Shown here in pieces: positions 4,415 to 24,201 of a DNA stretch of 36,271 nt. This DNA is from a virus (Duplodnaviria; Heunggongvirae; Uroviricota; Caudoviricetes): the IMG/VR virus record IMGVR_UViG_2695420676_000012; one strand, written 5' to 3'. Under the pieces are notes generated by a model that did not search any database, was not told the origin of the DNA, and saw only the letters and a program-made list of their open reading frames with translations. Numbering within the stretch: position 1 is the first letter of the stretch; each line of letters begins with the position of its first letter. A program made the translations under genes and the position numbers.

Positions 4415-4456
4415 AGTAGTGAATCCTCAATAAAATAATATTCACTACTATTTATA
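4414..4456 (-). promoter_or_regulatory. TATAAATA box plus 11-bp hairpin occluding the RBS/start codon of the 3416-4414 gene
   Basis: Minus-strand 'TTATAAATAgtagtgaat[loop with GAGG]attcactactATG'; perfect 11-bp inverted repeat 4414-4424 / 4440-4450. Confidence 0.45.
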
Positions 4457-4460
4457 AGAA

Positions 4461-5178: not shown

Positions 5179-5187
5179 ATTACCCCC

Positions 5188-5535
5188 TTAGATATATTGC
5201 ATAAGATAGCCGGTAAATCTAAGTCCCTTGATATAATAGTTAGTTGTCCCTACACACACCGCGCGTGTATCGCCAATACAATTGAAGTTGTAAGGATTAA
5301 CTACATCAATCTCCTGCCCTACACGAAAGCGATACTTAGGACGTTTAGCGAGTGTCGCAACACAAAACACTAGCCCGTTACCATCATCGCGGATCATCTG
5401 CTTGAATTGTTTATGTTGGACTCTCTTCGCCTCAAAATCATAGGTCATTGATTCTGGGCTAATGCCATTGATAAAAATACCGGAAAGCTGGTCGACCGGA
5501 TAAGTAGGAAATTCAGTGAAAATATTTTTAGCCAT
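5188..5535 (-). CDS. hypothetical protein (115 aa)
   Basis: ORF with SD 'GGGGGT' 6-7 nt before ATG; no recognisable motif. Confidence 0.5.
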   Translation of the reverse strand: MAKNIFTEFPTYPVDQLSGIFINGISPESMTYDFEAKRVQHKQFKQMIRDDGNGLVFCVATLAKRPKYRFRVGQEIDVVNPYNFNCIGDTRAVCVGTTNYYIKGLRFTGYLMQYI

Positions 5536-5573
5536 GTTATACCCCCATAAGTTTCTATGAGGGTATTTATGGA

Positions 5574-6257: not shown

Positions 6258-6258
6258 G

Positions 6259-6429
6259 TTAGCCCCCTAATAACGAAAAGACCCCCGCCAGTGTCCTTAG
6301 CAATTGTTCATCCACGGTCATAGCCGGGAGTTCAAGCCCAAAGGACGTTAGCAGAGGTCTAATAGCTACGTTATAAGTGAGGGCGACAATCAAGAGATAA
6401 CCAAAATATTTCTTAAGTTTATTCTTCAT
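6259..6429 (-). CDS. small membrane protein (56 aa), not in the ORF track; holin-like size
   Basis: Manual translation 'MKNKLKKYFGYLLIVALTYNVAIRPLLTSFGLELPAMTVDEQLLRTLAGVFSLLGG'; SD 'AAAGGGGTG' upstream. Confidence 0.35.
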   Translation of the reverse strand: MKNKLKKYFGYLLIVALTYNVAIRPLLTSFGLELPAMTVDEQLLRTLAGVFSLLGG

Positions 6430-6447
6430 ATATTCACCCCTTTATTA

Positions 6448-6726
6448 TTATTTTTGTTTGAGTATGTCGAGAACTTGGTCAAATTTGGCGTCCATCGCAA
6501 CCACTTTCTTCTCTATACCGTGTAGTGTTTGTTCCATTTGGTAAACACGTTCAGCAATCTGAGTATGGTTATTCTGCATCGTCTCAAACTTCTGGTTTAA
6601 CAATGCGTCGCTGGATTCCAATTTCGACAATCTATTTTCTGTAGCTAATTGATTTCGGTGAAGTCTCCAAAGCCCACCACAAATTAAGGCGATAACACCG
6701 ATACCGCCATATATAATTTCAGTCAT
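6448..6726 (-). CDS. membrane-anchored coiled-coil protein (92 aa; i-spanin-like topology)
   Basis: N-terminal TM 'IIYGGIGVIALICGGLW' followed by coiled-coil-like region; SD 'GGGGG' before ATG. Confidence 0.5.
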   Translation of the reverse strand: MTEIIYGGIGVIALICGGLWRLHRNQLATENRLSKLESSDALLNQKFETMQNNHTQIAERVYQMEQTLHGIEKKVVAMDAKFDQVLDILKQK

Positions 6727-6771
6727 TACGCCCCCGATATTTTTATATAATTTAATGGCAGAATTATTTAG

Positions 6772-6814
6772 ATAAAAATAATCCCGCCTAACTCAAAAGA
6801 ATTAAGCGGGATTA
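6772..6814 (-). terminator. Rho-independent terminator after the J-like gene
   Basis: ~10-bp stem 'atcccgcCtaa / ttaagcgggat' followed on the minus strand by a T-run. Confidence 0.5.
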
Positions 6815-6831
6815 ATTATTAGAATTAAATT

Positions 6832-9800: not shown

Positions 9801-10578
9801 ATGAATCAACGTTAATATTTTCAATCGGTACACTAAGACCATACTTTGTATTTGTCAGATAATGGAAAATCTGGTCCACGCCGTTAGTGCTAGCCTCAAT
9901 AGCATTGGTTTCAAGGTTACGAATCTTTAAGCCCATAACATCGACCGCTACCTGGCTATTAGGCTGGAGAATATCAACACCAGCAGCCAAAGATTTGTCA
10001 TCACGACGTAAAACAATACACATGGTCGCAATGCCGTTACCCTGATACCGATCATCCCAATCAGCGCCCAAATGATGTTTAGCTAAATCCAATGCAGTGT
10101 TAGGATTTTTACCCGTGCGAAACTCGACTTCTAAAACTTTGCGGTATTCGTCTTTAATGTTTCCTTTATCGAGAATGCCATCACGAATTGTCATATTCTG
10201 GCTAATGAGAACGTTTTTATTATCGATGTGCAGTGCTTTAAAGTGATCGATCTCACCTTCGGCAATAGCAAAAATTTGTACCAGCTTGTTATTTTCACGC
10301 TGTGAAATTGCCTTGTAAACGCAGATTGCACCAGTTCGGGTAGTACCGAAAAGAACGGGTAAAACTGTCTTAGGATCGTTTGATGTTCCTAGTGTCACCG
10401 CATTATCTGGGCTTTGTACTTTAGGTGTTTTTGGTGCGCCTACAGTGGAAGCGATCAAGGTCATTGCACCAGCAGCCATACCGATAGCGACTGCGGTCAT
10501 AACAGAAAATGTTGCAGCAGCAGCCATCCCAGCAGACGCACCAGCAATAACCGCGCCTACCAATATTTCAAATCCCAT
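6832..10578 (-). CDS. central tail fibre / host-specificity protein (lambda gpJ-like), 1248 aa
   Basis: Size and position after a K-like gene; C-terminal ~110 aa ('DDHPFDRQIV...VIDMPAG...TGISVS') resemble my recollection of the lambda J receptor-binding end; SD 'GGGGGTG'. Confidence 0.8.
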   Translation of the reverse strand: MGFEILVGAVIAGASAGMAAAATFSVMTAVAIGMAAGAMTLIASTVGAPKTPKVQSPDNAVTLGTSNDPKTVLPVLFGTTRTGAICVYKAISQRENNKLVQIFAIAEGEIDHFKALHIDNKNVLISQNMTIRDGILDKGNIKDEYRKVLEVEFRTGKNPNTALDLAKHHLGADWDDRYQGNGIATMCIVLRRDDKSLAAGVDILQPNSQVAVDVMGLKIRNLETNAIEASTNGVDQIFHYLTNTKYGLSVPIENINVDSFLKVRKQVRQMDLHSNGACDPNASFKENLTSLMQTFGGVMFESFGRITLKLDAPDIVKHTFNEDNIMMGKVSLKTGGTNGYFNTINAMYQEPSIDYSEQMLRYPADAENDATIRQDGRIIAKDIEYRFVKSKAQIDKLASVERNKSRITQVISFMTTDAFTAEVWDVISVTYDELKLNNSLWRITAIDRSIDSGIAGMMTITATEYNSQVYTDLNYAATPDNRPTGLPDSMTVQKPTNFRIKATGETIHGKNVTLTWDAPEDFNRYGFQIDYRVSGSPNWIKLGQTSQQIFNINALAKDRSYDYRVCAFGIIARSEWVELVNQNPTVTYELPTPVIRIKNQGSTPGTFEGNDLIIEWENQQQLDVMINGEANKFSDLFEAYIIKVTNKAGKSIQYRTRDPESWTYTLDMNQFNGLSRELTVEVSVKGYNNSESAPARLVAINPQHKPMKGFSARGGFNTAFVSWADDVEHDYAGSIIQYATDNTFSDARAVTTNSVSHTSFDLADGDYYIRGAHYDIFGMDDAVWSEPYFMQMKSTISWDDQDKEALEDLIGLQDRLDETIADAIAQAGANADAKIDAMHKQITTETGQTVQASADTLKSLIATSEQASATKIDQVKAELKGDITKEVSASATTLKQAIATSEAASASKIDQVRVEMDGKIAGVNQEADVKIDALKGTINSKYNLAVNADGRVAGIHMSATNDPAEPTRIIFTADKIAVAPQDGSEVCPFGIEDNKVYLDNAMIRNAAIGTAQISDASITTAKIGTAQINGAHIQHAQIGTGHIIDGSIDNAKIGNYIQSYNWNGNDGWYIGKDGTCHFRHANIRGHLVADSGEMNNVTINSSCRILGMLDANQVRGDFVKVVGRSFPHRQPNWPDGAITVRVEDDHPFDRQIVIPAIHHNGSVRRGESSDHWDTCRLIVKKNGGVLYDRTATSGCMYSGVIDMPAGHGAVTMTFEVYCKGVNNYNPSAYISDLTVMVTKKAATGISVS

Positions 10579-10997
10579 TATTCACCCCCGAATCTATAAA
10601 CTTGTTCATAGTCAATGTCTGAAACAGGAATGGTCATCCAGATACCATCTTCTTCAACAAGGCCATAACCGGAATAATGAGGAACTACGGAATAATATTT
10701 GCGGTTTCCTAATTTGTGGGCTGTGACCAGTAAGTCGCCGTCCTGTAAATCATCAGTGACTAATTTGAAATGTTTCTTAATTGGTTGAAGGATATTTGAA
10801 TACCCGCTTAATTCTTTGCAGATTTTCAAGCCTTCTTCTTTAGTTGAATATTTTTTATAAAGAGAATTATATAGGTCAGTACCAGCGAGAATATCGATGA
10901 TCTTACATGCAATTAGATTGCAATCATTCTCGCCTTGAACGAACTCCTGACCTATTAAAGAATTGATGTAATCGGTGATAAGCCTAGTTTTTAGCAT
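10578..10997 (-). CDS. tail tip protein with NlpC/P60-like motifs (lambda gpK-like)
   Basis: 'ENDCNLIACKI' (Cys) and later 'VVPHYSGYG' (His); start set at the ATG with SD GGAGGT (track ORF extends to 11153 through a start lacking an SD). Confidence 0.45.
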   Translation of the reverse strand: MLKTRLITDYINSLIGQEFVQGENDCNLIACKIIDILAGTDLYNSLYKKYSTKEEGLKICKELSGYSNILQPIKKHFKLVTDDLQDGDLLVTAHKLGNRKYYSVVPHYSGYGLVEEDGIWMTIPVSDIDYEQVYRFGGE

Positions 10998-11043
10998 GTT
11001 GAATACCTCCATGCTGTTATTTACTAGGCTTAGGGAGAAGGGA

Positions 11044-11697
11044 TTATTTCTTCGATGAATGCCACTTGCTTTCCGATTGCCAGCGCCCGGTCCTTGAGAA
11101 GAATAGATCGTTCTCGTTTCCAACATAGGAACGGTGGATACCATCGGAGGCATGACTACGAGCGTTTTTATCTAGAACTTCCCAGATACTATTAAGCTGA
11201 AATTCTGATTCGTTTTTACACTCATCATCTTCATGTTCGATGTTAATACCGATGGAATCGACTACCCCACGGAAAACAGGGTAAGTGGTTTCAACCTTGC
11301 CCGTGTTGGGGTTAAGGAAAACCATCTCGATTTTCACATCGGATTTATCGAATTGCTTGTTTCGAATGAGAGTAATGTATTCTTCGCGAACGTTAGAAAC
11401 GGTTACGTTAATCCCGTTGTTGTTGATCTCCTTCTCTTCGGTATTCGATGAGATTTGAAGAAAATCACCCGTTGCGAGATACGTAAATCCGTTATAGTCC
11501 AAATCGAAATACCCATCTGTAAGCCGTAGAACGTCCCCTGACGCTGTTATCACTTCGATAATGTGAAACATCGATCCAGTGGAAAAAAGCTGCGGTAGCG
11601 TCAATCTAGACACGTTCTGACCTGTCTGGTCGTTGTAGACCTCGATGAAGTCCAGATTAGTGCATAGTTTGCTGAATGATTCCTGAATAGTTGCCAT
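11044..11697 (-). CDS. minor tail protein (lambda gpL-like by position and size)
   Basis: ~218 aa between the M-like and K-like genes; start ATG overlaps the upstream stop (TAATG); weak resemblance to gpL. Confidence 0.4.
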   Translation of the reverse strand: MATIQESFSKLCTNLDFIEVYNDQTGQNVSRLTLPQLFSTGSMFHIIEVITASGDVLRLTDGYFDLDYNGFTYLATGDFLQISSNTEEKEINNNGINVTVSNVREEYITLIRNKQFDKSDVKIEMVFLNPNTGKVETTYPVFRGVVDSIGINIEHEDDECKNESEFQLNSIWEVLDKNARSHASDGIHRSYVGNENDLFFSRTGRWQSESKWHSSKK

Positions 11698-12257
11698 TAT
11701 ACATTCTCCACTAATTCGAATTTCATCTTGCCAATCTGGGCGATCTTCCAATCGATATTTTCAGTTTTGAGAACAAATTCACCTTCTACGTTCTGATACT
11801 TGATCACCTCACCAGCCAGGACGTTTTGACGCAAGTTAGGGAAGAGTTTCATTTCACCACCTGATTTCACATCTTCGGTGATCGTGTAGATTTTCTTGTG
11901 GTTCTCAAACTGGATGATAGTTCCCGCTTTCAGTGTTCCGGTGAAGTTGGAGAGTCTTACCTTACGCCCACCGCGAGCAGTACCAGCAGCAGCCGTTACC
12001 ATCTGGCGTACATCGCCTGTATATTTTGAAAAGTAAGACAGTGGCACACTAAAAGGACGACCAAAAAGGTGACGTGCTACAAATTCTTTTACTTCGTTAA
12101 TATCCTGAGCCATGAAATTAGCTGTAAATTCTGCTTCATAAAAATGAATACCAGTAAAGCGACGCTGGAACTTACCAGAAATAGATTGCGCCTTGAAGAA
12201 AGGCTGTTTTGATTTAAGAGTAAAATCTGTGATTTTAATATTCTTGGATTTGAACAT
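11697..12257 (-). CDS. minor/distal tail protein (gpM/Dit position), 186 aa
   Basis: First gene after the tape measure; SD 'GGGGG' lies in the 3' arm of the 12263-12302 hairpin. Confidence 0.4.
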   Translation of the reverse strand: MFKSKNIKITDFTLKSKQPFFKAQSISGKFQRRFTGIHFYEAEFTANFMAQDINEVKEFVARHLFGRPFSVPLSYFSKYTGDVRQMVTAAAGTARGGRKVRLSNFTGTLKAGTIIQFENHKKIYTITEDVKSGGEMKLFPNLRQNVLAGEVIKYQNVEGEFVLKTENIDWKIAQIGKMKFELVENV

Positions 12258-12258
12258 A

Positions 12259-12306
12259 GAAAAGCCCCCATAGTTTTATGATTATTTATCACTATGGGGG
12301 CTTTTA
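12259..12306 (-). terminator. intercistronic hairpin (attenuator) between tape-measure and distal tail genes
   Basis: Perfect 11-bp inverted repeat 'agcccccatag / ctatgggggct' with 18-nt loop; on the minus transcript followed by 'UUUUCU' and the ATG; 3' arm contains the SD. Confidence 0.45.
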
Positions 12307-12307
12307 A

Positions 12308-14737
12308 TTACATCTTACGACGCTGAACGTCTTCTATCGCCTGAGCAACAAACTTAGCGTGACGTTTGATAGCATCCATGACCATCTTGTCTGAGCTATT
12401 AACGTTGCCGTTAATGTTCAAAGGCGCATTAACTTCAATCGGCTGAGAGTTACCACCACCTGATTTTTGAGCAGCAAGGAAGTCTTTCAAATCACCGTTA
12501 GTACGCTGATCAACTACTCGTTCACCCTTATCAAGCAACCATGTACCCTCACGAGGGATGTTATCAATACCATCATGAGCCATACCGCTAACGTTAGTAG
12601 ACTTGATGTTTGCGATGTTCCCCATGTTCTGAGAAACAGCCAATGCAGCAGCCGCGATTTTTTGACCTGTGGTGACGTTGGTCGGATCGTTCCATGCATC
12701 GGTAGCAGCCGTCCACATGTTCACCGTCGCTTGTCCGATAGAGAATGCTTTATGAGCATTGAAAGCCATCTGCATAGCTTTAGTGTTTTCCTGCCCGAAG
12801 AGAGTCATTGCAGCAGCAAAACCGCCGTACATATCATCGGCTATTGACTGGCGAGCATCAGCATATTTCTTCTCAATTGCAGCCATTCGTTTTTGATGGT
12901 TTTCATTGAGTTTTTCTAATGCTTCCATCCGTTTAGCCGGATCGGTGATCCCATCAATCTTGAGTTTATCGGTCTTATAATCTTGTTCAGCATCCGATTT
13001 CTCTTTATCGATTGCATTAAATTTAGCAAACGGATTATTTGAGTCCTGATAGTCTAAGCTATTGGTCAATTGATTGGTTTTAAAACCATCCATTCCATGC
13101 AAAGAATCTTCAATCTGTGAATAACTTTGTTCGGTATCATTCACACGACGCATATATTCTTCGTAGGAGATAGCCTTACCATCAAGTAACCGTTTATGGC
13201 TTTCTAACTCGTTGTCCCTGATTTGTTGCAATTGTGTTAAAGCATTCAGAGCATCAACCGGATCAGCACCTAAGACCATTTTGTATACGTTTTCAGTATT
13301 CTGATCGATTAGCGCCTGGCGTTTCGCGGCTGCGTCTTCCTGAGAGATTAAGCCCAGAGCTAAAGCAGTATCCAAATCTTTCAAACTGGCTTCTAACTGC
13401 TTGTTTTGAGAAGCAATAGACGCGGCGACCTGCCCTTGCAATTTAACATCAAGTGCATTCAGTCGCTTGATTGCGTCCTCGCGTTCTTTCTGTGCTTTTT
13501 CTGCGGCTTCCTTAGCCTTTTTAGCTGCCTCTTCCGCTTTCTTGCGTGCTTCTTCTTCGGCTTTCTTCTCGTTGCCAGATTTACCCAATGATTCTGGTCT
13601 TACTGGTTTATTTGGTATAGTCAAATCAGTGTTAGGATCTGCCTTGCGTGTCAGATGTTCCCCGTTATCGACAACAATCAGAGAGCCATTTTTCTTATAA
13701 GAATCACCAAAACGTTTCTTAAATCCTTCAACATCAAAGCCAGCAGTACGAGGATCGACACCAGCACCACGGATCGCGGCCTTTTCCCAATCTGCCAGAT
13801 TATTCCAACGCTTTTCTTTATTGTACTTGTCAATAATTTTTTGAGCGTCTTTATGGTTGGCGTTAAGAATACCGCCAGTTGCGGTCTTGCCTTCTTTATT
13901 CAGTCGATCTAATGCCCTGAATAGAGAACTCTTTTCCCAATCAATATTAAACCAGTCAAATAACCAGTTTAAACTATCAACCAGCGGACCAGAAATGGTC
14001 ATACCGACACCTTTCAGGTTATTTTCCAGCTTATTGATATTTTGAGAAAATTTATCATATTTTTTAGCGTTTTCTTCGGTGACGTTAACAGATTGATTCT
14101 GAATAGCGATCATCGCCTCTTGAGCAGTATTATATTTCTCAAGCTGGCTGGTCATATGGCTTGAATCACTGGCTAAAGATTCCATCATGAACTTGATTTC
14201 AGCCATTGATTTTCCGGCTTTCTTCATGTCATAGAACACTTGGATCGCCGCTTTCATACCACCTTGCGGATCAGTCATGAAGTGAGCATAGTTTTCTAAC
14301 TTAAGGCCAACCGATTCTAAGTCATCGGCAATACCGCCACCGTTAGCCCATGCATCACCCATTTTATCTAAGGTGTCTTTGTTGATATCACCGAATTTTT
14401 CAACTGTTAGGCCAGTACCAGAAAATTCCTTTTCCAGTCTTTGAAGGGATTCAATCGAGAGTCCGGTCGCCCTAGATACTTCTGAATACTGTTTAACGTA
14501 TTCCGCACCAGCTTTAGCGGCTGCAACCACTGCGGTCGCAACTAAACCGATACCACCAGCAGCCAAACCAGCAGAGCCAGCGATCCCACGAAGAGATCCA
14601 GTCAGACCAGACAAGCCACCACCAAAATCAATATTACTTGCCTTTTCAGACAAATCATCGAGCAGGTCAGCGGCTTCACTAGTGCTTCTCTTTAGCCCTT
14701 TATTATCCCCTTCTATTGTTACTATATGTTTTGTCAT
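12308..14737 (-). CDS. tail tape measure protein, 809 aa
   Basis: Long Ala/Gly- and coiled-coil-rich protein between the chaperone pair and the tail-tip genes; SD 'AAAGGGGT'. Confidence 0.8.
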   Translation of the reverse strand: MTKHIVTIEGDNKGLKRSTSEAADLLDDLSEKASNIDFGGGLSGLTGSLRGIAGSAGLAAGGIGLVATAVVAAAKAGAEYVKQYSEVSRATGLSIESLQRLEKEFSGTGLTVEKFGDINKDTLDKMGDAWANGGGIADDLESVGLKLENYAHFMTDPQGGMKAAIQVFYDMKKAGKSMAEIKFMMESLASDSSHMTSQLEKYNTAQEAMIAIQNQSVNVTEENAKKYDKFSQNINKLENNLKGVGMTISGPLVDSLNWLFDWFNIDWEKSSLFRALDRLNKEGKTATGGILNANHKDAQKIIDKYNKEKRWNNLADWEKAAIRGAGVDPRTAGFDVEGFKKRFGDSYKKNGSLIVVDNGEHLTRKADPNTDLTIPNKPVRPESLGKSGNEKKAEEEARKKAEEAAKKAKEAAEKAQKEREDAIKRLNALDVKLQGQVAASIASQNKQLEASLKDLDTALALGLISQEDAAAKRQALIDQNTENVYKMVLGADPVDALNALTQLQQIRDNELESHKRLLDGKAISYEEYMRRVNDTEQSYSQIEDSLHGMDGFKTNQLTNSLDYQDSNNPFAKFNAIDKEKSDAEQDYKTDKLKIDGITDPAKRMEALEKLNENHQKRMAAIEKKYADARQSIADDMYGGFAAAMTLFGQENTKAMQMAFNAHKAFSIGQATVNMWTAATDAWNDPTNVTTGQKIAAAALAVSQNMGNIANIKSTNVSGMAHDGIDNIPREGTWLLDKGERVVDQRTNGDLKDFLAAQKSGGGNSQPIEVNAPLNINGNVNSSDKMVMDAIKRHAKFVAQAIEDVQRRKM

Positions 14738-14748
14738 AAATTACCCCT

Positions 14749-15090
14749 TTAACCGCTTCTGAGTTTCTCAAGCAAAGATGGATCAAACATGTTCAGCATT
14801 GCCGCTTTACGTTCTTCTTCTTTCTTGCGTGCAAGTTCTTCCAGTTCTTCTTTAGTTTTAAAGAGTTTTTCTTCTCTAATTAATTGGAATTGGCTAGGCT
14901 TGAGTTTGCGTGCAGTTTCGCGTGTCATTCCTTGCGACGTCATATACATGGAATATTGCAACATCGCATTCTGCATATCATGAAACGCGGGGCTTTGTGG
15001 TTCTAAGTAGGTGTCGAAAATGTATAATTTCCAAAACAGAGTGATTGGCATATTATCCATTTCATCTTTACTAAGCCCCGATCGCATCAT
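14749..15090 (-). CDS. tail assembly chaperone, T-frame portion (probably expressed as a G-T fusion by -1 frameshift)
   Basis: Frame is open from 15135, overlapping the last 5 codons of the upstream chaperone gene in the -1 frame; lies between major tail protein and tape measure. Confidence 0.5.
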   Translation of the reverse strand: MMRSGLSKDEMDNMPITLFWKLYIFDTYLEPQSPAFHDMQNAMLQYSMYMTSQGMTRETARKLKPSQFQLIREEKLFKTKEELEELARKKEEERKAAMLNMFDPSLLEKLRSG

Positions 15091-15119
15091 TTGCCGGAAA
15101 TAGAAATTCAGAAGCGGGT

Positions 15120-15135
15120 TTACTTTACCTCGTTT
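15120..15135 (-). other. candidate programmed -1 frameshift window (G/GT-type)
   Basis: Overlap between the end of the 15120-15428 ORF and the open -1 frame leading into 14749-15090; no canonical X XXY YYZ heptamer seen. Confidence 0.35.
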
Positions 15136-15428
15136 TCAATTACTGCCGGATCTTGCATCAATGACGCTTGAGCAACCAAACCGATTAATTCACTGCGGAC
15201 GTTAGTATACAGTGCCTTAACTTGTTCCATAGATTCAAATACTGGTTTACCGTCTTCATCTTCAATACAACGAAGAATAGAACGTTCATCACGGTCATCT
15301 TTATCGGTATTGAAAACATGTTCGTTAAATTCTTTTACTGACATAGGGCGAGCATAGAAAGTGAATCCACCGATGGTCAGAGATTCGCGTTTCGGAGAAA
15401 GAGCTTTCAGCATTTCATTAATATTCAT
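15120..15428 (-). CDS. tail assembly chaperone (gpG-like), 102 aa
   Basis: Immediately downstream of the major tail protein gene; SD 'AAGAGGAAA'. Confidence 0.55.
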   Translation of the reverse strand: MNINEMLKALSPKRESLTIGGFTFYARPMSVKEFNEHVFNTDKDDRDERSILRCIEDEDGKPVFESMEQVKALYTNVRSELIGLVAQASLMQDPAVIENEVK

Positions 15429-15473
15429 TCTTGTTTCCTCTTAAGTTAATTCGATATGTTTATTTAGAATTGG

Positions 15474-15503
15474 AAACAAAAAAGCCACCCCGAAGGATGG
15501 CTA
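15474..15503 (-). terminator. Rho-independent terminator after the major tail protein gene
   Basis: Minus transcript 'agccatcc-UUCG-gggtggcu' followed by 'uuuuuu'. Confidence 0.55.
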
Positions 15504-15510
15504 GATAATA

Positions 15511-15981
15511 TTAGAGTTTCTGGAAAACAGCTTGTTTAACCGGAGCACCATCTACTACAAAGGTGAAGGTACGGCCTACTACAGTATCCTCACCACCAGT
15601 CATGGTAGTTTTAGACAGGAAGCCGTTATAAGCGATATGTACACCAGATTTTTTCGTAGCGTCGATGTAGTAAGCAATTTTAAGCTGTACGCGCTTACCG
15701 TCTTCGGTTGCTTTAATCAGTTTTTCGTGTACTTCGTTACCCGGCATGTAGTTGATCGAAAGTTCGATATCCGGTACAGACATACGACCAACCAGCTTAC
15801 GGTTATACGGACCACCGAAGTTAGGAACATCGACAGTAGAACGTTCTACACCAGTTTCCGGGAAAGCCGCACATTCTGGAATTTCCAGATAGCTTTCACT
15901 GTCAAGATCGGTGTTAGTTACTTCTTCATGCAGAAACAGACCAACGAGGCCACCAGAAAAAATATCAAATTTAGTAGTCAT
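15511..15981 (-). CDS. major tail (tube) protein, lambda gpV N-domain-like, 156 aa
   Basis: Position just upstream of the chaperone pair; strongly biased high-expression codons; 'ELSINYMPGNEVHEKLIKATEDGKRVQLKIAYY' resembles the gpV 'MPGEQG...YKIRF' region (recollection); own terminator. Confidence 0.6.
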   Translation of the reverse strand: MTTKFDIFSGGLVGLFLHEEVTNTDLDSESYLEIPECAAFPETGVERSTVDVPNFGGPYNRKLVGRMSVPDIELSINYMPGNEVHEKLIKATEDGKRVQLKIAYYIDATKKSGVHIAYNGFLSKTTMTGGEDTVVGRTFTFVVDGAPVKQAVFQKL

Positions 15982-16035
15982 TATTCTTTTCCTTCTATTT
16001 TAAACAATAGGGCACATACCCGTAATTCTATTTAT

Positions 16036-16338
16036 TTAGCGGTTGCTCAAACGTCTATAACGAAGATGAGCGATCCCCCTATTTGTGCTAACGGTAATTA
16101 CCGCCCCTTGCGGTGCAATACAAGAATGAATCTGTCCCCAATCATGACCCTTATGGCTTCCAGAAACACACAAACCATGAATAAGCAATTCAGAGTCACC
16201 ACCGCCACCACCGGAAGAATGAGCACAGAATGAAATAGTCCCGAAAGCGTCGGCTGTCCAACCGTTAGGAATATCAAACCATCCTTGATTTGCTTTACCC
16301 GCCCTATTCCCCAAAGCGCCATCTACCCAAAATGCCAT
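16036..16338 (-). CDS. small glycine-rich protein, paralog 3 of 3 (100 aa)
   Basis: Shares 'W....FDIPNGW', Gly-run and 'G..WG...V..G..V' with the two upstream paralogs; start overlaps the upstream stop (TAATG). Confidence 0.55.
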   Translation of the reverse strand: MAFWVDGALGNRAGKANQGWFDIPNGWTADAFGTISFCAHSSGGGGGDSELLIHGLCVSGSHKGHDWGQIHSCIAPQGAVITVSTNRGIAHLRYRRLSNR

Positions 16339-16643
16339 TAGTGCATTCTCCTGAATTTAAAATAATGCAAACTACCTTTACCCAATGTAAAGCTAACGGT
16401 AGCACCAGCGCCAACTAAAGAACTAGCGCCCCAACTCCCAGCATCACCAGCATGATGACCTGATTCAATCAATCCATTTACAGCCAATTCAGAATCAAGA
16501 TCACCAGCACCGTTAATGGCTTCCATATGAGCAAAAACAATTCCGCATGAATCAGTAACCCAGCCGTTGGGGATATCAAAATATCCACCATTAGCCCAAA
16601 TACTAATAGCGTTTGACATTCTTTGATTTATCCATCCAGCCAT
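16338..16643 (-). CDS. small glycine-rich protein, paralog 2 of 3 (101 aa)
   Basis: Same conserved motifs (FDIPNGW, ...TVSFTLG...YFKF) as paralog 1. Confidence 0.55.
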   Translation of the reverse strand: MAGWINQRMSNAISIWANGGYFDIPNGWVTDSCGIVFAHMEAINGAGDLDSELAVNGLIESGHHAGDAGSWGASSLVGAGATVSFTLGKGSLHYFKFRRMH

Positions 16644-16645
16644 AA

Positions 16646-16942
16646 TTAAAACTCCATGAATTTAAAATATTCAACACCACCTTCACCCCCTAAACCAAAG
16701 GAGACGGTGCAGCCAGCAGGAACAAACGAATTTATAGTAGATCCCCAATTGGTCCCACCACGACGACGAGCAACGGTCAAACCATCTACGTTAATATGTG
16801 CATCAGACCACCCACCACCAGCATTATGACGCATTACAGCGACACCAGCACGAGCAGTACCATAGCCGTTAGGAATATCAAATACATGCCATTTTAAAGC
16901 ATCGATTTTAGTATTAATTTCACTACTTACCCAATATCCCAT
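16646..16942 (-). CDS. small glycine-rich protein, paralog 1 of 3 (98 aa)
   Basis: Motifs 'FDIPNGY', 'GGGW', 'TVSFGLGGEGGVEYFKF'; SD 'AAGGA' before ATG. Confidence 0.55.
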   Translation of the reverse strand: MGYWVSSEINTKIDALKWHVFDIPNGYGTARAGVAVMRHNAGGGWSDAHINVDGLTVARRRGGTNWGSTINSFVPAGCTVSFGLGGEGGVEYFKFMEF

Positions 16943-16980
16943 ATAAGAATCCTTAGCGGAGATTTCTCCCCGCTTTCCAA

Positions 16981-19900
16981 TTACCCTAATTTAGCTTCAA
17001 TTGCAGCAAGACGTTCACGAAGAAGTTTATTTTCTTCGCTCATTTCTTGGACCGCTTTAATTAAAAGCGCGTTCACTGCGGAGTTTGAAATTGTTAAAAT
17101 TTCTTCTGGGTTATCAAGACCACCAATTTTTGCGGTTTTAACAGCTTCCGGTAATACCTCTTGTAAATCCTGTGCGATAATACCAATCTCATGACCTATA
17201 ACTTCTCGGTCATTAAGAGATTTAACTTTATCGTAGGTTTTAACTTTGAGTTTATTTACCTTATCCACCGCATTTTCTTCGTAATCTTCAACATTAATTT
17301 TCAGACGACCATCGGAACGAATATAAACATCGTTAAAGTTACCATTACCAGGAGAATAGAAAGTACCATCATGATGAAATTCAAACACCGCTTGAGGATG
17401 ACCAGCCGCTGGCGATGCCTCCGCAGATCCAACGCGAATAATTGCTTGCCCCCAATTTTGAGGAACACGACGCATACCAAAATCGACGGCAGTTGTATAC
17501 CCTTGATTGGTGATTAAACTTCTTCCTTTAATAATTGGATAATAGCTATCTGGTCCTACATAACCATGATCGACAAATATCGGCGCTTCTAATCCCCATT
17601 GATCGCCCCAACCTCCAGATTGGCTAGCAGTCCAACGTTCACCATGAACATAGAATCGAACGTTATTGACATGAGTCATTTCGACACCTTTTGGACTTAG
17701 CGCGATATCACCCGCGTTTGTAATATTGATAGCAGCATTAGTAGCATAGCTATAGAACGCTAATCCATTATCAGCACCACCTTTACCGATATACCAGTTG
17801 TTATTATCAGCACAAGTACCCAGCAAATATATAGACGAATCACCCGTTTCGGCATTCATGACGATTGCGTCAGAACCACGATTAACTTTAAGTTTCCCGA
17901 AGAAGGTGTTTTTAATGGTATTATCACCCAATCGTTCAAATTCTGCGAAAAATCCTTTTGAGTCACGAAGACTTAAAACGTTATTTCGACCTGTATTGCT
18001 TGCCCCCCAATGGACGAGTTCCATATAGTCCATAGATTGACGAGAACCAGCTTTAAAGAAAAGGTTGTCTTCAAGACGGGTACTACCATCAATTCCGAGA
18101 TGCAAACAACGAGCGGTTGCAGTACCACCTAAATACAATCCACCGTCCGCAAAATCATAGCTGAATGGTCTGCGATTATTCCAACTACCAAAAGAATCTT
18201 TTAAATCGGTAGTAAGAATATGGAAGCTAGAACCATCATTGCGTAAAATCAAACCATAGTTACCACCTTTGACAGCCAAACGAGCATTTTCAGATAATGC
18301 AACTTCGCTATTCATTACAATTTTCTGGCCTTTACCGCCAGTAATATGCAATTCACCATCTTCAATCAGGTTTATAGAGTTTTGACCGTTATCGTTCCAC
18401 CAAATAAAATCTTTGGTTGTTCCATCACCAAAACCAAACCAACCATTACGAACATCTTGTCCAGTGCGATAATCCATGAAATTAAAATGACTTGATTCGT
18501 TTGGTCCTCGACGAATATCAATACCAGAATTTCCAGTAACACCGCCATCCAATGTTAATTTCTTGACATGTAACCCGGATGTTGCTGTCAGCAATAATTC
18601 CTGATTTGTATCTTCGTATCCAGTAGCAAGACGATATGCGTTATCATCAACTGTCTCATGCCAGATAGTGGCAGGAGCAGAACTACGGAAGCGACGCAAC
18701 ATTTTCTTAGCATTTGTTTGCTGTTCGTTCAAATGCTCAATGTCGTATTGGCCTTGATGGTTTCCAGCAAAATTTAACGTTCCACGGTTGCTAAAGTTAT
18801 TGAACGATGAAATGTTAAGAGCATCAAAAATTTCATCTGCAACAGGTTTTTCACCACCCAGATATTCAGGAGTATCCAACAGGTTTAAAGAAACACCACC
18901 GGAAGAAACTTGATATTCTGCTAAAACAAATCCTGTATGTGCACCGTAGTAAGCGTAAAGATCGTAATTGTCGCCATCGGTTGGAATAGCGCAAAAATGT
19001 TGTTCATGATGCCAAATAGTATAATACGCATTGAATACAACACCTTTCGGGCTATTGTTGCCGCATCGAATCACCAATTCGATAATATTGGCTTGTCCAT
19101 TATGTCCTACGTTATAACCGTTACCACCAACCAAACGGATCTTAGCCGTGCGACCGTGTTGTTGTGGCATTGTCAAAGTGCCTAGTTTAAACCAACCACC
19201 CTCGATACCAAAATTAAGCGTCTTCTGGAACAGTCGGTCAATTTCTGCTTTCGAATATGCGCCAATTTCAGCCGGAGTAGGTTTATCACCTTCATGATAC
19301 ATGCGGTGAGAATATGCCAAATGTCCCAATTCATCATAGCCGTATGTTCTTACCGTATGAACCGGATTAGACCCATAAGTGAACTCAAAACCACGAGCAT
19401 GATTAACGCCGGATGGGTGCGGAACATGCAAGATCATTGCAATATGACCCGCCAGGTCATTCATGCGAAATGCACCAAAGTAATCAAGATTAAGAGCACT
19501 CGGATCATCAAAAGGGTTTGCGGTCTTAGACAGCAAATAGCCATCAGTGCAAGTGTTTACGTGCTTTTTGATGTACTTGCCATCACTTGATCCATCGGCT
19601 GCATCAATACGGCTTTCTAAACGTGCAAGTTCGGAATCAGTGTAAGACTTGTTATTGTCAACTTTGCTATGAATTGCTGAATTTTTGGCTTCAACATCAC
19701 GGGTTAATGCTGCGACGTTATCCGCTGCCTCTTGCTTATTGGCTGCAATCACACCAGTAAGGTTATTGTAGGTGTCAGTTAACTGATTTTCCGCATAGGC
19801 GTGATTTGCTGCGATAGTGCGGTCAGTTTCTGCCTTAATCAAATCAACTTTGTCATTGATTGCTTTGTGATTGCTTACGATGGTTGCATCGGTACGGGAT

Positions 19901-20391
19901 TTAATATCATCAACTTTTTTATTGATGCGGGTGTCCAGTTCCTGAGTTGCTACAGCAGCCGCATTTTTATTAGCGTTGATGGTATCCGACAATTCAGCTT
20001 TAACACCAGCAAGATCGGAAGCAGCTTTATTTTTATTGGCCTCGATTGTCGCGTCGGTTTCGCGTTTAATTACATCAACTTTATTGTTAATTTCTGCGTG
20101 ATTTGCTGCGATGGTTGCATCAGTAGTTTGTTTAATTTCATCTACTTTAGCGTGAATATTGCGGCCATTTACTGCAATTGTGCTATCCAATTCTTGTTTG
20201 TTAGCATCAACTTTAGATTCTAGTGCCGCGTGAGTTTCAGGAGAAACAGAGATTTGAACTACTTCATGATCTCGGTCTTTGGTAAAAATAACATGGTCTT
20301 TAAGGTTGATTGCTACCTCACCGACCTGTAATTGTTCCGGCGTTGGCTTTTTGCCAGAAACATTAGTTCGTTTAAATTGGATTGATTGCAT
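16981..20391 (-). CDS. tail fibre with C-terminal intramolecular chaperone (peptidase S74-type) domain, 1136 aa
   Basis: C-terminal 'SDGRLK...GIIAQDLQEVLPEAV...LLRERLAAIEAKLG' matches the autoproteolytic chaperone module of T5 L-shaped fibre / endosialidase-type fibres; N-terminal ~22-aa 'KVD.IK..TDATI.ANH' repeats; SD 'GAGGTGA'. Confidence 0.8.
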   Translation of the reverse strand: MQSIQFKRTNVSGKKPTPEQLQVGEVAINLKDHVIFTKDRDHEVVQISVSPETHAALESKVDANKQELDSTIAVNGRNIHAKVDEIKQTTDATIAANHAEINNKVDVIKRETDATIEANKNKAASDLAGVKAELSDTINANKNAAAVATQELDTRINKKVDDIKSRTDATIVSNHKAINDKVDLIKAETDRTIAANHAYAENQLTDTYNNLTGVIAANKQEAADNVAALTRDVEAKNSAIHSKVDNNKSYTDSELARLESRIDAADGSSDGKYIKKHVNTCTDGYLLSKTANPFDDPSALNLDYFGAFRMNDLAGHIAMILHVPHPSGVNHARGFEFTYGSNPVHTVRTYGYDELGHLAYSHRMYHEGDKPTPAEIGAYSKAEIDRLFQKTLNFGIEGGWFKLGTLTMPQQHGRTAKIRLVGGNGYNVGHNGQANIIELVIRCGNNSPKGVVFNAYYTIWHHEQHFCAIPTDGDNYDLYAYYGAHTGFVLAEYQVSSGGVSLNLLDTPEYLGGEKPVADEIFDALNISSFNNFSNRGTLNFAGNHQGQYDIEHLNEQQTNAKKMLRRFRSSAPATIWHETVDDNAYRLATGYEDTNQELLLTATSGLHVKKLTLDGGVTGNSGIDIRRGPNESSHFNFMDYRTGQDVRNGWFGFGDGTTKDFIWWNDNGQNSINLIEDGELHITGGKGQKIVMNSEVALSENARLAVKGGNYGLILRNDGSSFHILTTDLKDSFGSWNNRRPFSYDFADGGLYLGGTATARCLHLGIDGSTRLEDNLFFKAGSRQSMDYMELVHWGASNTGRNNVLSLRDSKGFFAEFERLGDNTIKNTFFGKLKVNRGSDAIVMNAETGDSSIYLLGTCADNNNWYIGKGGADNGLAFYSYATNAAINITNAGDIALSPKGVEMTHVNNVRFYVHGERWTASQSGGWGDQWGLEAPIFVDHGYVGPDSYYPIIKGRSLITNQGYTTAVDFGMRRVPQNWGQAIIRVGSAEASPAAGHPQAVFEFHHDGTFYSPGNGNFNDVYIRSDGRLKINVEDYEENAVDKVNKLKVKTYDKVKSLNDREVIGHEIGIIAQDLQEVLPEAVKTAKIGGLDNPEEILTISNSAVNALLIKAVQEMSEENKLLRERLAAIEAKLG

Positions 20392-20411: not shown

Positions 20412-20452
20412 AGGAATAAGGGAGGCGTTAACCTCCCCGCGTCATGTTTTAT
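20412..20452 (-). terminator. terminator-like hairpin upstream of the tail fibre gene
   Basis: 'gggagg-cgttaa-cctccc' stem-loop followed on the minus strand by a T-rich run. Confidence 0.35.
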
Positions 20453-20464: not shown

Positions 20465-21298
20465 TCAGTATTCCCCGAAGTCGATCCGGTCATGGATAGA
20501 AACGGCTTCAATCTCGGCTGGTGTCGGTTTTTCTTCCGTGGAATACACTTTCACCCATCCAGAATTACCGTCTTTCTGGACTGTGCGAACTCGTAAACGT
20601 GGTGCGCCGGAAGCGGTGCAAGTTAATTGCCATCCTCCATCTTCATTAGGTTGAACGTGAATTAGTGAAGTATCAGCACTAAATGGGTTAGATGCGCTCG
20701 ATCCCTGATAGGTTACGAAACGGTTTCCGGCTAATGCTTCGCTATCAATCGGACCCGTGAATGGATTTACACCAGCACCCAAACCAAAATCACCTTGACG
20801 TAAGATCCGGCCTTCGGTGGCAATACCACGGTCGAGAATCCCACCATCAGGATCTAATTTAAATTCGATGGTAGTAACTTTGTTATCGCTACCACGGGTT
20901 TTGTGTGATGTGACGTATGCATCAAAAATGACGTAGTATCCTGTGTTAGCAGCACTATAGCCAGAGTTCACAACATAGAACATACGGAAGCGTAAAGGGG
21001 TTTTATCCTCTACCGCTTTCATCAACATTGCTTGATGTTCATCATCCAGAACACGGTTTACTGTGAGTGTTGTTGATTCAAGTTTACGATAGCCAGCCAA
21101 CTTACCAGTAACATCATGGTCATATTCTTCTAACGTCTGGATCTCTGTGGATTCGGTTATCGTCGGAAATGCTGCGATGTTCTCGATAGGACTAAATGCA
21201 GGATCGAAAAAGTCCGGCTGGTTATCCACCATAGTAGACACGGAGACTTCAACATGCGACCCCGTGAAAATGTCTAAGTTATCTTGTGTAATATTCAT
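20465..21298 (-). CDS. tail tube-like / neck structural protein, 277 aa
   Basis: Weak gpV-like pattern ('TLTVNRV...LRFRMFY...YVIFDAYVTS...TTIEFKL'); C-terminal 'KPTPAEIEAVS..DRIDF' also found in the tail fibre; SD 'AAGGGGT'. Confidence 0.4.
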   Translation of the reverse strand: MNITQDNLDIFTGSHVEVSVSTMVDNQPDFFDPAFSPIENIAAFPTITESTEIQTLEEYDHDVTGKLAGYRKLESTTLTVNRVLDDEHQAMLMKAVEDKTPLRFRMFYVVNSGYSAANTGYYVIFDAYVTSHKTRGSDNKVTTIEFKLDPDGGILDRGIATEGRILRQGDFGLGAGVNPFTGPIDSEALAGNRFVTYQGSSASNPFSADTSLIHVQPNEDGGWQLTCTASGAPRLRVRTVQKDGNSGWVKVYSTEEKPTPAEIEAVSIHDRIDFGEY

Positions 21299-22036: not shown

Positions 22037-22062
22037 AAAAAGCCCCACCATTAAGGCAGGGC
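22037..22062 (-). terminator. Rho-independent terminator after the capsid gene extension
   Basis: Minus transcript 'agcccugcc-uuaau-gguggggcu' followed by 'uuuuuu'. Confidence 0.45.
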
Positions 22063-22068
22063 TAATTA

Positions 22069-22200: not shown

Positions 22201-24201
22201 TCATTCAGCGGAGATGTGAAGAACTTTCAGGGCTTCCGGCTGTGCTACAACGTAGTCCAAATCTACAAAGATACGAGGCACTACCGCACCACGATCCCTA
22301 TATGTAGTTAGATCCATGTCGAGTTCCAGACCTCCCCACTCACCGATAGTAATACCGGAGAAGTCACCCAGAACGATGTGGTCTGCCGGGATAACGCCAG
22401 AAGTAACTACTTCGTAACCAGCCAGTTTGCCGTTTTCGATGATATAACCGGAAACGCCGTTATCTTTCAGGGTAGATTCCAGTTCAGCAGCAGTTGCACC
22501 GCTCATTGCAAACTTGATCGCCTGAGCAGGAACGCCAGCGTCGGTCAGTGCTGCAATTTCTTTCAGGAAGTCTTTATAAGAGAAAGCAGCTTTCTTGGTA
22601 ACGCGGCTAGCGTCTACCAGTTGCTTAACCAGACCAGCCGGACCACGAGCATTTTCTTTATCAGACAGAATCAGTTGTTCCAGTTTGATACGAACAGCTT
22701 TGTTAATGTGATCAGTGATCAGGGTAGCGATGCCCGGAACGGTTTTCAGCGACTGACGGCTGATCGGGTTGCCACCAGCAAAAGTTTTCGGAGACAGTTT
22801 CACGTTCGCAAATTCAGCTTTGCTTTCCGGTGCAGCACCGTTTTCATCAACGAAGCCGAAAGCGTCAACGCTGGAAGCGGTCATTTTTGGAATAGCGGTC
22901 GGGGAGTTCAAGCCACTGTAAACAGTCACACCCAGACGACCCAGAACAGATTCCGGCATCAGCATTTCGATGTAGGATTCAGTCATCAGTTTTTCGTCAG
23001 TTACAGCGGTCAGAGTAGTTTTGGTGTTACCATCAGCAGCAGCACGCAGAGCAGCAGCCGGAACGAATACAGAGCCACCACGAGCAGCACGACCACGCTG
23101 CATCGCAGCACCAGCAGCCATAGAGGAATATTCAGCTTCGTTAGCACCCAGAGCAGCACCATCTACCAGAGAGCGAATTACGTTGTTCAGGTCAAAAGTT
23201 TTTTCCATTTTAGAGTCCTTAATTTGTTCGTTATTACGTTGAGCATTGACGAGATTATTTAGTGCCTTAGTGCGGAATGCTTCCGGCGTCATGTCTTTAA
23301 TTGCCAATGCGCGTTTCAATTCTTCGTCATCAATATTTAGTTCGCGTGCAATTTCGCGAATTTCTAATTCGTCTTCTTCGGAACGTTCAGCCACTTCTTC
23401 GATTTTTTCTTCTTCAACCGGAGCAGCTTCACGTTCTTCTTTTATTTCTTCTTCCCGAACAGTTGAACTATCATCATCAACACTTTCAGGATGTTCAGCG
23501 TCTTTTCCGTCTTCGAGATTTTCATCTTCTTTATTCTCTTCAACTTGGCGCTCTTGAGTTTCTTCAACTTCCGATTCTTTAATTTCTTCTACCGGAGTTT
23601 CTTCAACCTGAGCGGATTCTTGTTCTTCTTTGATTTCTTCAATTTGTTCTTTAGTCATATCGCGTTTAGCCTCCAAATTAACTGTGATAGTATTTAGAGA
23701 GCGATTTAAACCGACCGTATCGTCAGCAGGAACGGTGACAAATGAGAGTTCATAGGGCGCCCACTTAGTAACAATCAATTGCCCTTTGGCGTAATCGATG
23801 TGATATTCTTTAATGTCATAGCCGACAGAAATTTTTTCCATCGTACCTTCAATGACTTTATTGCGAATATCATTAGCCAAAGTGCCATGCTTAGAGAATT
23901 TAACCAGAGCACGACCTACGTTATCCGCATCGATTCGAGCGTCGCAGACTACACCTAAATGATTATCGAAATTATGATTGAACAGCAACGGAGCGTTATT
24001 ATTCAGACGAGACAGATCAACCGCTTCCGGTGTATGTACCAGAATTTCATCTAGTACCACCATCTCTTGATTTTGCTCATCCCAGAATTGGCGCTGATAC
24101 GGCTGTTCACTGGAGAAAGCAATTTCAAATTCGTATTGATCGTTATGCCCTTCGTTAATAACTCCACCGTAACCGTTAAGATCGCGGCGAAATTTAAGCA
24201 T
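22201..24201 (-). CDS. prohead protease (HK97/S78-like) - acidic scaffold-like linker - major capsid protein fusion, 666 aa
   Basis: N-terminal ~160 aa ends with protease-like 'ELSFVTVPAD'; E/D-rich linker (~residues 180-290); C-terminal ~350 aa Ala/Gly-rich capsid-like domain; between portal and connector genes. Confidence 0.7.
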   Translation of the reverse strand: MLKFRRDLNGYGGVINEGHNDQYEFEIAFSSEQPYQRQFWDEQNQEMVVLDEILVHTPEAVDLSRLNNNAPLLFNHNFDNHLGVVCDARIDADNVGRALVKFSKHGTLANDIRNKVIEGTMEKISVGYDIKEYHIDYAKGQLIVTKWAPYELSFVTVPADDTVGLNRSLNTITVNLEAKRDMTKEQIEEIKEEQESAQVEETPVEEIKESEVEETQERQVEENKEDENLEDGKDAEHPESVDDDSSTVREEEIKEEREAAPVEEEKIEEVAERSEEDELEIREIARELNIDDEELKRALAIKDMTPEAFRTKALNNLVNAQRNNEQIKDSKMEKTFDLNNVIRSLVDGAALGANEAEYSSMAAGAAMQRGRAARGGSVFVPAAALRAAADGNTKTTLTAVTDEKLMTESYIEMLMPESVLGRLGVTVYSGLNSPTAIPKMTASSVDAFGFVDENGAAPESKAEFANVKLSPKTFAGGNPISRQSLKTVPGIATLITDHINKAVRIKLEQLILSDKENARGPAGLVKQLVDASRVTKKAAFSYKDFLKEIAALTDAGVPAQAIKFAMSGATAAELESTLKDNGVSGYIIENGKLAGYEVVTSGVIPADHIVLGDFSGITIGEWGGLELDMDLTTYRDRGAVVPRIFVDLDYVVAQPEALKVLHISAE

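Follow-up and report, generated by a model that had tools for sequence, protein, structure and literature searches.

The gene studied here encodes the side tail fibre of a temperate siphovirus-type E. coli prophage and is, as judged from alignments, a mosaic in which a gp37-like joint is followed by an inserted stalk and by the shaft and tip of a gp37 protein. Its product is very probably a four-module side fibre, homotrimeric as judged from homology, that serves as the host-recognition organ of the phage by the mechanism proposed below. Taken by itself, it is a fairly ordinary tail-fibre gene and one more example of a well-understood class. The sequence-only reading of this DNA had recognized a tail fibre, an identity borne out by the match to phrog_1699 and by the homology to gp37, but it had overlooked the mosaic origin in gp37. 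The features discussed are listed in Table 1, with positions referring to the window, i.e., the whole stretch of 36,271 nt that was analyzed.

Table 1. Features of the fibre cassette and its surroundings, with window positions (nt), strand and supporting evidence.
Feature	Position	Strand	Evidence or remark
Side tail-fibre gene, 1136 aa	16981..20391	-	ORF; phrog_1699 'long tail fiber protein distal subunit', E 1e-126
N-terminal anchor/joint domain, aa 1-55, MQSIQFKR...GEVAINLKDHVIFTKD	20227..20391	-	aa 1-51 with 41% identity to aa 4-54 of Krischvirus KFS-EC gp37
Stalk of 22-residue (2 x 11) repeats, aa 56-264	19600..20226	-	Period-22 signal, no Pro, sub-threshold Apolipoprotein match
KPTPAEIGAYSKAEIDRLF module-boundary motif, aa 370-388	19228..19284	-	Motif also at the corresponding site of Krischvirus gp37 (aa 156)
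Shaft and receptor-binding tip homologous to gp37, aa 280-1025	17317..19554	-	KFS-EC gp37 homology, Gp34_trimer
Intramolecular chaperone (Peptidase_S74), aa 1026-1136	16984..17316	-	Pfam; PDB profile search; S16 gp37 cleavage-site alignment
277-aa predicted fibre anchor	20465..21298	-	Tail-tube-fold domain and fibre-like C-terminal domain
Three paralogues, 98/101/100 aa	16646-16942, 16338-16643, 16036-16338	-	gp38 slot; candidate tip cap
Major tail tube protein, 156 aa	15511..15981	-	phrog_158, E 8e-20; downstream end of fibre cassette

The window is a siphovirus-type E. coli prophage of ~36 kb, relatives of which occur in 58 of 5426 genomes. Its tail module follows the order tube, tail chaperone, tape measure, distal tail protein and tip genes, the last four lying 3' of the 156-aa tube gene. 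A survey of the genes and profiles of the window found no sheath gene in this module, which indicates a siphovirus-type tail, and neither gp34, gp35 and gp36 genes nor a T4-type baseplate were found there. Outside the fibre cassette, megablast against 50,697 phage records gave no match, and plasmids likewise gave none, which indicates that no sequenced phage is a close relative of the prophage backbone; NCBIfam returned zero matches across the eight proteins searched. IS elements break up the tail region in several relatives. These disruptions would fit a decaying gene relic in a defective prophage that makes no functional fibre, a very improbable reading given that the 3.4-kb ORF is intact, as is every structural gene adjoining it in the window. 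Moreover, dN/dS values of 0.1-0.3 place the stalk under purifying selection, those of the three small downstream genes are 0.08-0.24, and the fact that cassettes have repeatedly and recently been exchanged with lytic phages implies active use.

The homology to gp37 comprises both ends of the protein. Besides the N-terminal joint, fibre aa 280-1136 align with aa 66-920 of KFS-EC gp37 at 87% amino acid identity (857 aa), and Pfam places a Gp34_trimer match (PF21446) at aa 644-745. At the DNA level the gp37-homologous part is 89% identical to Krischvirus overall, and the identity reaches 96.4% in the 1.8 kb from nt 1597 to 3411 of the gene. The joint is kept in all cassette types of the prophage family, and the sequence 3' of it differs between them.

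The last 111 of the 1136 residues, located behind the gp37-type shaft and tip, are supported by profile and alignment evidence as an S74-type intramolecular chaperone with its scissile serine at residue 1026. Peptidase_S74 (PF13884) covers aa 1026-1085 over the entire profile (positions 1-58 of 58; E 4.3e-14) at 53 bits, well over the curated cut-off of 22 bits. In a domain-profile search of the PDB the best match was gp37 of phage S16 (6F45; E 4e-26), besides MYRF (7DC3; E 3e-10), GA-1 gp12 (3GUD; E 5e-4), in which the released fragment or chain starts at the aligned serine, and a T5-type L-shaped fibre (8HQZ; E 2e-3). Processing has been demonstrated for these chaperones. A chaperone signature in the C-terminal ~110 aa and an autocleavage serine in SDGRLK near residue 1026 had been predicted in the sequence-only reading, which had let this claim depend on an alignment to S74 domains; such alignments extend over the full Pfam profile and recur among the PDB chaperones, and SDGRLK begins at residue 1026 precisely, the codon of Ser1026 being nt 17314-17316 and that of Lys1031 nt 17299-17301. 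Serine, aspartate and lysine are invariant across an alignment of five diverse homologues. Additionally, the Ser-x4-Lys spacing of S1026-D-G-R-L-K1031 is the same as that of the catalytic dyad of T5 pb1, Ser1264 and Lys1269 (PMC4690869), and the fibre segment DVYIR^SDGRLKIN aligns with DLNVS^SDRRIKK, the site at which S16 gp37 is cleaved (PMC7917993). Cleavage of the 124.9-kDa precursor is thus predicted between R1025 and S1026, which would yield a mature protein of 112.6 kDa (aa 1-1025) and a released fragment of 111 aa with a computed mass of 12.3 kDa.

Compared to Krischvirus gp37, the fibre carries an insert of ~225 aa behind its N-terminal joint, and this insert contains the stalk, which is absent from gp37 and is predicted to form a trimeric alpha-helical coiled coil. 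The N-terminal 22-residue repeats noticed earlier are real, although their unbroken register comprises nine full units and one partial unit as compared to the roughly eight first counted, with close copies of.KVD.IK..TDATI.ANH. in four or five of the units. At lag 22 the BLOSUM62 score averages 1.02 (30% identity), whereas the best score at any lag in 1000 shuffles had a mean of -0.09 ± 0.08 and a maximum of 0.31. Hydrophobic residues occupy hendecad columns 2, 6 and 9, the 209 aa of the stalk include 0 Pro and 3 Gly, and the match to the Apolipoprotein 11/22-mer family of Pfam lies below threshold. The repeats that had been described at the DNA level (nt 19650-20250) are likewise present but degenerate: five 18-nt copies occur between nt 19834 and 20214 at spacings of 66, 165, 66 and 66 nt, and a 114-nt repeat pair shows 71% identity. 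It had been suggested that this region is a recombination substrate through which the fibre changes its length by gain and loss of units. The presence of the degenerate, 66-nt-spaced repeats is in line with such a process, as is the variety of stalks in the other cassette types of this prophage family, which run from ~120 to ~215 aa and differ in period; in a stalk made of 29-residue units, PI7 and RMDEC332 differ by ~38 aa. Nevertheless, length variation by recombination is improbable for the stalk type studied here: an 1171-nt query across the repeat region matches 1169-1173 nt in ~25 E. coli relatives, and in the Salmonella homologue, which is 55% identical, the length of the stalk is essentially unchanged, so that the number of repeats is constant in both comparisons. 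Furthermore, exact direct repeats reach 17 nt at most, Tandem Repeats Finder detected no array in the fibre gene, and the purifying selection on the stalk (dN/dS 0.2-0.3) also argues against this suggestion.

A six-frame translation of the whole window contained only three occurrences of KP[TS][PAKNC]x[DEQ][ILVMF], namely at fibre aa 15, at fibre aa 370 and at aa 257 in the C-terminal end of the 277-aa protein, in agreement with the earlier observation that a KPTPAEI motif is common to the fibre and the adjoining protein. The motif is present four times in gp36 and is a recurrent module boundary of long tail fibres, which in the 277-aa protein marks a gp36-like C-terminal end; this, too, had escaped the sequence-only reading. 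Due to this recurrence, a specific duplication between the fibre gene and the 277-aa gene was rejected; the flanking DNA, with an identity of only 38/96, also argues against a duplication involving the two genes.

The 277-aa protein consists of a tail-tube-fold domain (aa ~13-163) and a fibre-like C-terminal domain, of which the last 28 residues (aa 250-277; nt 20468-20551) resemble the end of gp36. These residues, KPTPAE[IV] and the final IDFG.[FY] among them, align end to end with the C-terminus of gp36. It passes the tube-fold and tail-tube profile tests, and its AF2 model is reliable for the tube domain only, the C-terminal domain being modelled at pLDDT 28-45. Sequence searches of the PDB with this C-terminus as well as with the N-terminal joint of the fibre returned spurious matches only (designed trefoils, CylK), and a solved structure of a gp36-gp37 joint was not found in them. 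The protein was also considered as the major tube protein and rejected, as its gene is not at the canonical position directly 5' of the tail chaperone and tape-measure genes; that position is occupied by the 156-aa gene, whose product has the stronger profile match. Between a hexameric tube-fold ring and a trimeric fibre there is no obvious symmetry match. Because it combines a tail-tube fold with a C-terminus matching that of gp36, the 277-aa protein is likely the anchor of the fibre. The fibre could instead be mounted at the distal tail tip, the 277-aa protein being a terminator or decorated tube protein with no fibre role. The well-studied side fibres of siphophages, those on the T5 collar and the Stf fibres of lambda (Ur-lambda), sit near the tip according to two reports (PMC10038345, PMC12617516), the 277-aa gene takes the usual place of a tail-terminator gene, and the mismatch between hexamer and trimer agrees with attachment at the tip. 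We regard this arrangement as unlikely, since adjacent genes encoding an 'ID[FL]G..' C-terminus and then a gp37-like N-terminus were found in five independent contexts (Krischvirus gp36/gp37, nine sampled E. coli prophages, a Salmonella prophage, the DCP80 record and a metagenomic contig) and homologues of 465-698 aa, longer than the 277-aa protein, bear additional gp36-like fibre modules ahead of the same terminus.

Three small, conserved paralogous genes are located directly behind the chaperone-bearing gp37, in Krischvirus as well as in the prophages. Their products have no match in Pfam, PHROG or NCBIfam and no BLAST match to gp38 of MIZ4 or ETEC4085, and a gp38 homologue was not found within the window. 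The predicted fold is a C1q/TNF-like jelly roll as opposed to the glycine-rich polyglycine-II sandwich of gp38, and in all three paralogues an invariant W4 precedes a predicted helix. The trio and the gp38 adhesin exclude each other on fibres whose last 250 mature residues share 96-97% identity. A search for Rosetta-stone fusions to fibre proteins among 1.84 billion representatives yielded only 19 clusters, almost all of them stand-alone proteins of ~100 aa; the few long matches to the family cover short stretches of the profile only, and the one inspected, P0106, is a repetitive protein of 1118 aa. It is quite conceivable, if somewhat short of probable, that the small proteins are folding or assembly chaperones of the fibre, or unrelated cargo, rather than parts of the virion tip. 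Against this, the fibre has a chaperone domain of its own, the predicted jelly roll is a typical fold of trimeric heads, the trio alternates with the gp38 adhesin on nearly identical fibre ends, and every member has a predicted N-terminal Trp-bearing helix, comparable to the three Trp helices of gp38. We tentatively suggest that the trio might form a 1:1:1 heterotrimeric C1q/TNF-like cap, with one Trp-tipped helix per subunit, on the fibre end bared by release of the chaperone, and that this cap, together with the tube-fold anchor ending like gp36, might amount to a hitherto undescribed means by which a siphovirus tail carries a T-even distal fibre. Such a cap would be split and truly three-fold, whereas the gp38 adhesin is monomeric with three Trp helices.

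Following this, we propose that the first module, the ~55-aa joint with homology to the T-even gp37 N-terminus, docks to the gp36-like C-terminus of the 277-aa tail-tube-fold protein, which would enter the tail as a specialised ring. The second module, the ~210-aa double-hendecad stalk, would form a straight three-stranded coiled coil ~30 nm long and would replace the proximal half-fibre (gp34-gp36) absent from this phage. The third module, shaft and tip of gp37, was presumably acquired nearly entire from virulent Krischvirus (RB49-like) phages. In the last module, three C-terminal 111-aa S74 chaperone domains would nucleate and register the folding of the beta-structured tip; once the correct trimer is reached, Lys1031 would activate Ser1026, each chain would be cleaved, and the departing fragments would expose the distal end of the mature fibre. 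The exposed tip may be the receptor binder itself or may be capped by the three small downstream proteins.

The direct value of the fibre lies in annotation and in host-range prediction. The locus moreover illustrates how lytic T-even phages and a temperate siphovirus prophage have recently exchanged DNA: a complete receptor-binding module was transferred at up to 96-100% DNA identity, with breakpoints at conserved motifs, either behind the N-terminal joint or the stalk, and within the chaperone domain. It also points to a tube-fold adaptor with a gp36-like end and to an uncharacterised set of three genes that alternates with gp38; if these assignments are true, adaptor and trio would be practical handles for fibre engineering across phage morphotypes.

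Compared to gp37 of Krischvirus (KFS-EC YP_010097272.1, MIZ4, G37-3), the fibre is collinear, with the same KPT motif, Gp34_trimer region, tip and S74 chaperone, and the downstream accessory genes are common to both loci. Contrarily to Krischvirus gp37, it contains the coiled-coil insert and is encoded by a temperate phage with a non-contractile tail that has neither gp34-gp36 nor a T4-type baseplate; hence it is not part of a gp34-gp35-gp36-gp37 fibre on the baseplate of a contractile tail, and its sole gp36-like partner is the terminus of the 277-aa protein. In Salmonella phage S16, a C-terminal chaperone of ~113 residues cleaves gp37 before SD.R.K and exposes a docking surface (PMC7917993). 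The fibre resembles this S16/T2-type gp37-gp38 system (PDB 6F45), the best PDB match of its chaperone domain, and prophage relatives have a true gp38 3' of a 97%-identical tip, whereas the window encodes three ~100-aa predicted jelly-roll proteins and no gp38 in that place. With T5 pb1, where receptor binding is unmasked once the chaperone has been removed (PMC4690869), it has in common that it is a siphophage side fibre with an S74 chaperone and an equally spaced Ser/Lys dyad; beyond the chaperone, however, no similarity to the T5 fibre is detectable, and T5 fibres sit on the collar near the tail tip, whereas the predicted anchor here is a tube-fold protein encoded beside the head-tail joining genes. 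The Pfam family and the conserved Ser, Asp and Lys are also shared with the K1F endosialidase chaperone, GA-1/phi29 gp12 and the ICA domain of MYRF, although the passenger here is a fibre tip and not a sialidase or a transcription factor. Finally, gp36 of T-even fibres lies between the gp35 knee and gp37 (PMC5537660), and the 277-aa protein differs from it in that its N-terminal two-thirds are predicted to adopt a tail-tube fold instead of a fibre shaft.

As judged from its sequence, the protein encoded by the fibre gene belongs to a known class, gp37-type fibres that carry an S74 chaperone. The Pfam profile Peptidase_S74 matched residues 1026-1085 over its full length (E 4.3e-14, 53 bits; Pfam cut-off 22 bits), and the SDGRLK motif starts at residue 1026 with the serine codon at nt 17314-17316, which confirms both the C-terminal chaperone signature and the position of the predicted cleavage serine given in the sequence-only reading. 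Alignment to other S74 chaperones was likewise obtained: in a single-sequence search, the fibre alone aligned with S16 gp37 (6F45) through the cleavage site, DLNVS^SDRRIKK, at which a 113-residue chaperone is released (PMC7917993). Moreover, a chaperone-domain profile built from five diverse homologues matched 6F45 (4e-26), the MYRF ICA domain (3e-10), the GA-1 neck-appendage chaperone 3GUD (5e-4), whose crystallised fragment begins at the serine aligned with fibre Ser1026, and a T5-type L-shaped fibre (2e-3). Ser, Asp and Lys of the SD...K motif are invariant in the alignment of these five homologues, and the Ser/Lys spacing is that of Ser1264/Lys1269 in T5 pb1, in which S1264A stops processing (PMC4690869). 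Cleavage is predicted to yield a mature chain of 112.6 kDa ending with R1025 and a fragment of 12.3 kDa (111 aa). Homology supports the main interpretation of the earlier reading.

The N-terminal repeats of about 22 residues were also recovered: residues 56-264 keep an unbroken 22-residue register with nine full units and a partial one, and self-comparison at lag 22 gave a mean BLOSUM62 score of 1.02, as compared to a best any-lag score of -0.09 ± 0.08 (maximum 0.31) in 1000 shuffles. Written as 11-mers, this stalk has hydrophobic columns 2, 6 and 9, with Asn alternating in column 9; its 209 residues include no proline and three glycines, and residues 77-249 gave a sub-threshold match to Pfam Apolipoprotein (11/22-mer helix). 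We infer a hendecad-based, three-stranded alpha-helical coiled coil, which would be about 30 nm long if helical. The accompanying DNA repeats exist, but in degenerate form: cores of 18 nt recur at a spacing of 66 nt, a 114-nt pair is 71% identical, the longest exact repeat is 17 nt, and Tandem Repeats Finder detected no array in the fibre gene. The suggested recombinational length variation was not borne out for this stalk when relatives were compared, since around 25 of them span 1169-1173 nt over the first 1171 nt of the gene and a Salmonella prophage fibre (55% identical) has essentially the same stalk length. Stalk dN/dS is 0.2-0.3. In other cassette types the stalks range from about 120 to about 215 aa and differ in period; stalk length therefore varies between lineages, without gain or loss of units in this stalk.

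Fibre residues 280-1136 are 87% identical to aa 66-920 of gp37 from Krischvirus (RB49-like) phage KFS-EC, and a second stretch of homology, at 41% identity, pairs residues 1-51 with aa 4-54 of gp37. Since homology flanks it on both sides, the stalk is an insert between gp37 joint and gp37 shaft. At the DNA level, homology to the gp37 gene begins at window position 19528, and nt 1597-3411 of the fibre gene are 96.4% identical to KFS-EC. A Gp34_trimer domain common to T4 gp34 and Mu gpS lies at aa 644-745. In related prophages, different cassettes occupy the interval from the 277-aa gene to the tube gene: PK8568 and KSC64 have the same fibre with another tip, ETEC4085 has the same fibre and after it a true gp38 adhesin, and EC24 and 266917_2 have an 824-aa fibre with two other genes. 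Downstream of gp38, ETEC4085 (10398-10595) retains a 3' remnant of the third of the three small genes that follow the fibre here (compared with window 16036-16233), so a gp38 cassette has replaced the trio cassette; at its other edge, the breakpoint falls about 45 nt short of the chaperone-domain end.

Coordinates of features in the window
Feature	Position	Strand	Remark
564-aa serine recombinase	1648-3342	+	
Terminator-like hairpin	15483-15502	-	after tube gene
156-aa tube protein	15511-15981		
Trio of tandem paralogues (98, 101, 100 aa)	16036-16942	-	gp38 slot
Fibre (1136 aa)	16981-20391	-	
Terminator-like hairpin	20419-20438	-	between 277-aa gene and fibre gene
277-aa protein	20465-21298	-	tail-tube fold, gp36-like C-terminus
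Terminator-like hairpin	22041-22063	-	after capsid gene
666-aa prohead protease-major capsid protein fusion	22201-24201	-	

The C-terminus of gp36 is the part that joins the N-terminus of gp37. The final 28 residues of the 277-aa protein, a second tube paralogue distinct from the 156-aa tube protein, aligned over their whole length with the final 28 of Krischvirus gp36 (13/28 identical, E 3e-5), which sits between the gp35 knee and gp37 in T-even fibres (PMC5537660). Translated in all six frames, the window contains just three copies of the KPTPAEI-type motif, two in the fibre and one at the C-terminal end of the 277-aa protein; its sharing by these two proteins, noticed earlier, therefore holds and extends nowhere else in the window. 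The protein family comprises 82 clusters in Enterobacterales, and all 18 members sampled have a C-terminal ID[FL]G[ET][FY]; longer members (465-698 aa) carry additional gp36-like fibre modules before the terminus. The DCP80 record (proteins of 698 and 745 aa) and one metagenomic contig show the same pairing, a gp36-like terminus and then a gene that starts with a gp37-like joint. These sequence comparisons make the 277-aa protein the putative fibre anchor; judging by gene order, it may form one specialised ring close to the neck. The DCP80 record (Escherichia phage, PQ671644.1) carries the label of a 141-kb Gaprivervirus (Straboviridae), yet the opening ~18 kb (1-18560) encode head and tail genes of siphovirus type in the same order as in this prophage family, suggesting a chimeric assembly or mislabelling.

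Among 5426 complete E. coli genomes, 58 had chromosomal matches to the window region, and a plasmid search gave no match. Strain PK8568 carries this ~36-kb element, which encodes a large serine recombinase, between two halves of the antitoxin gene hicB (L001 1-540 and 36030-36540), which for this reason appears to be the integration site. The tail genes (156-aa tube, chaperone, 809-aa tape measure, distal tail protein, 1248-aa tip protein) are of the non-contractile type, with no sheath gene among them. Fibre cassette aside, no DNA-level likeness to the window was found in 50,697 phage records. The 666-aa fusion combines Peptidase_S78 (aa 40-162) and Phage_capsid (aa 407-662) domains across an acidic linker. 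The fibre and trio may form a separately attenuated transcription unit.

The trio proteins are mutually 24-43% identical, without family annotation in Pfam, PHROGs or NCBIfam, and are predicted to fold as an N-terminal helix and a C1q/TNF-like jelly roll. Their DNA, which lies where GC skew reaches its most negative value in the window (-0.30, positions 16001-17000), is 97% identical to the genes between gp37 and the holin gene of Krischvirus G37-3, i.e., the gp38 slot. The three always occur together (22 E. coli prophages and three Krischvirus phages), the Salmonella trio shows 1:1:1 orthology (51-61% identity), and dN/dS of 0.08-0.24 indicates purifying selection. One tentative proposal is that the trio caps the fibre tip. 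Trp4 is invariant in each paralogue, gp38 docks on gp37 via three Trp-tipped helices (PMC6851490), and W9, W22 and W37 of the gp38 encoded by relatives lie in comparable contexts; a search of the window for gp38 found none, and the last 250 mature fibre residues are 96-97% identical to gp38-partnered fibres. The cap role is nevertheless doubtful, because trio conservation exceeds that of the accompanying tips, the trio goes with the chaperone domain end and not with the mature tip, and KFS-EC retains only a collapsed remnant (L003 6855-7298 versus window 16020-16942), one 107-aa protein that is chimeric between paralogues 1 and 3 and looks like the product of a deletion between paralogues. KFS-EC is a described lytic isolate despite this collapse. 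The added interest lies in the so far uncharacterised trio, a putative tube-fold anchor ending like gp36, a predicted coiled coil in place of the proximal half-fibre, and recent exchange with lytic T-even phages.
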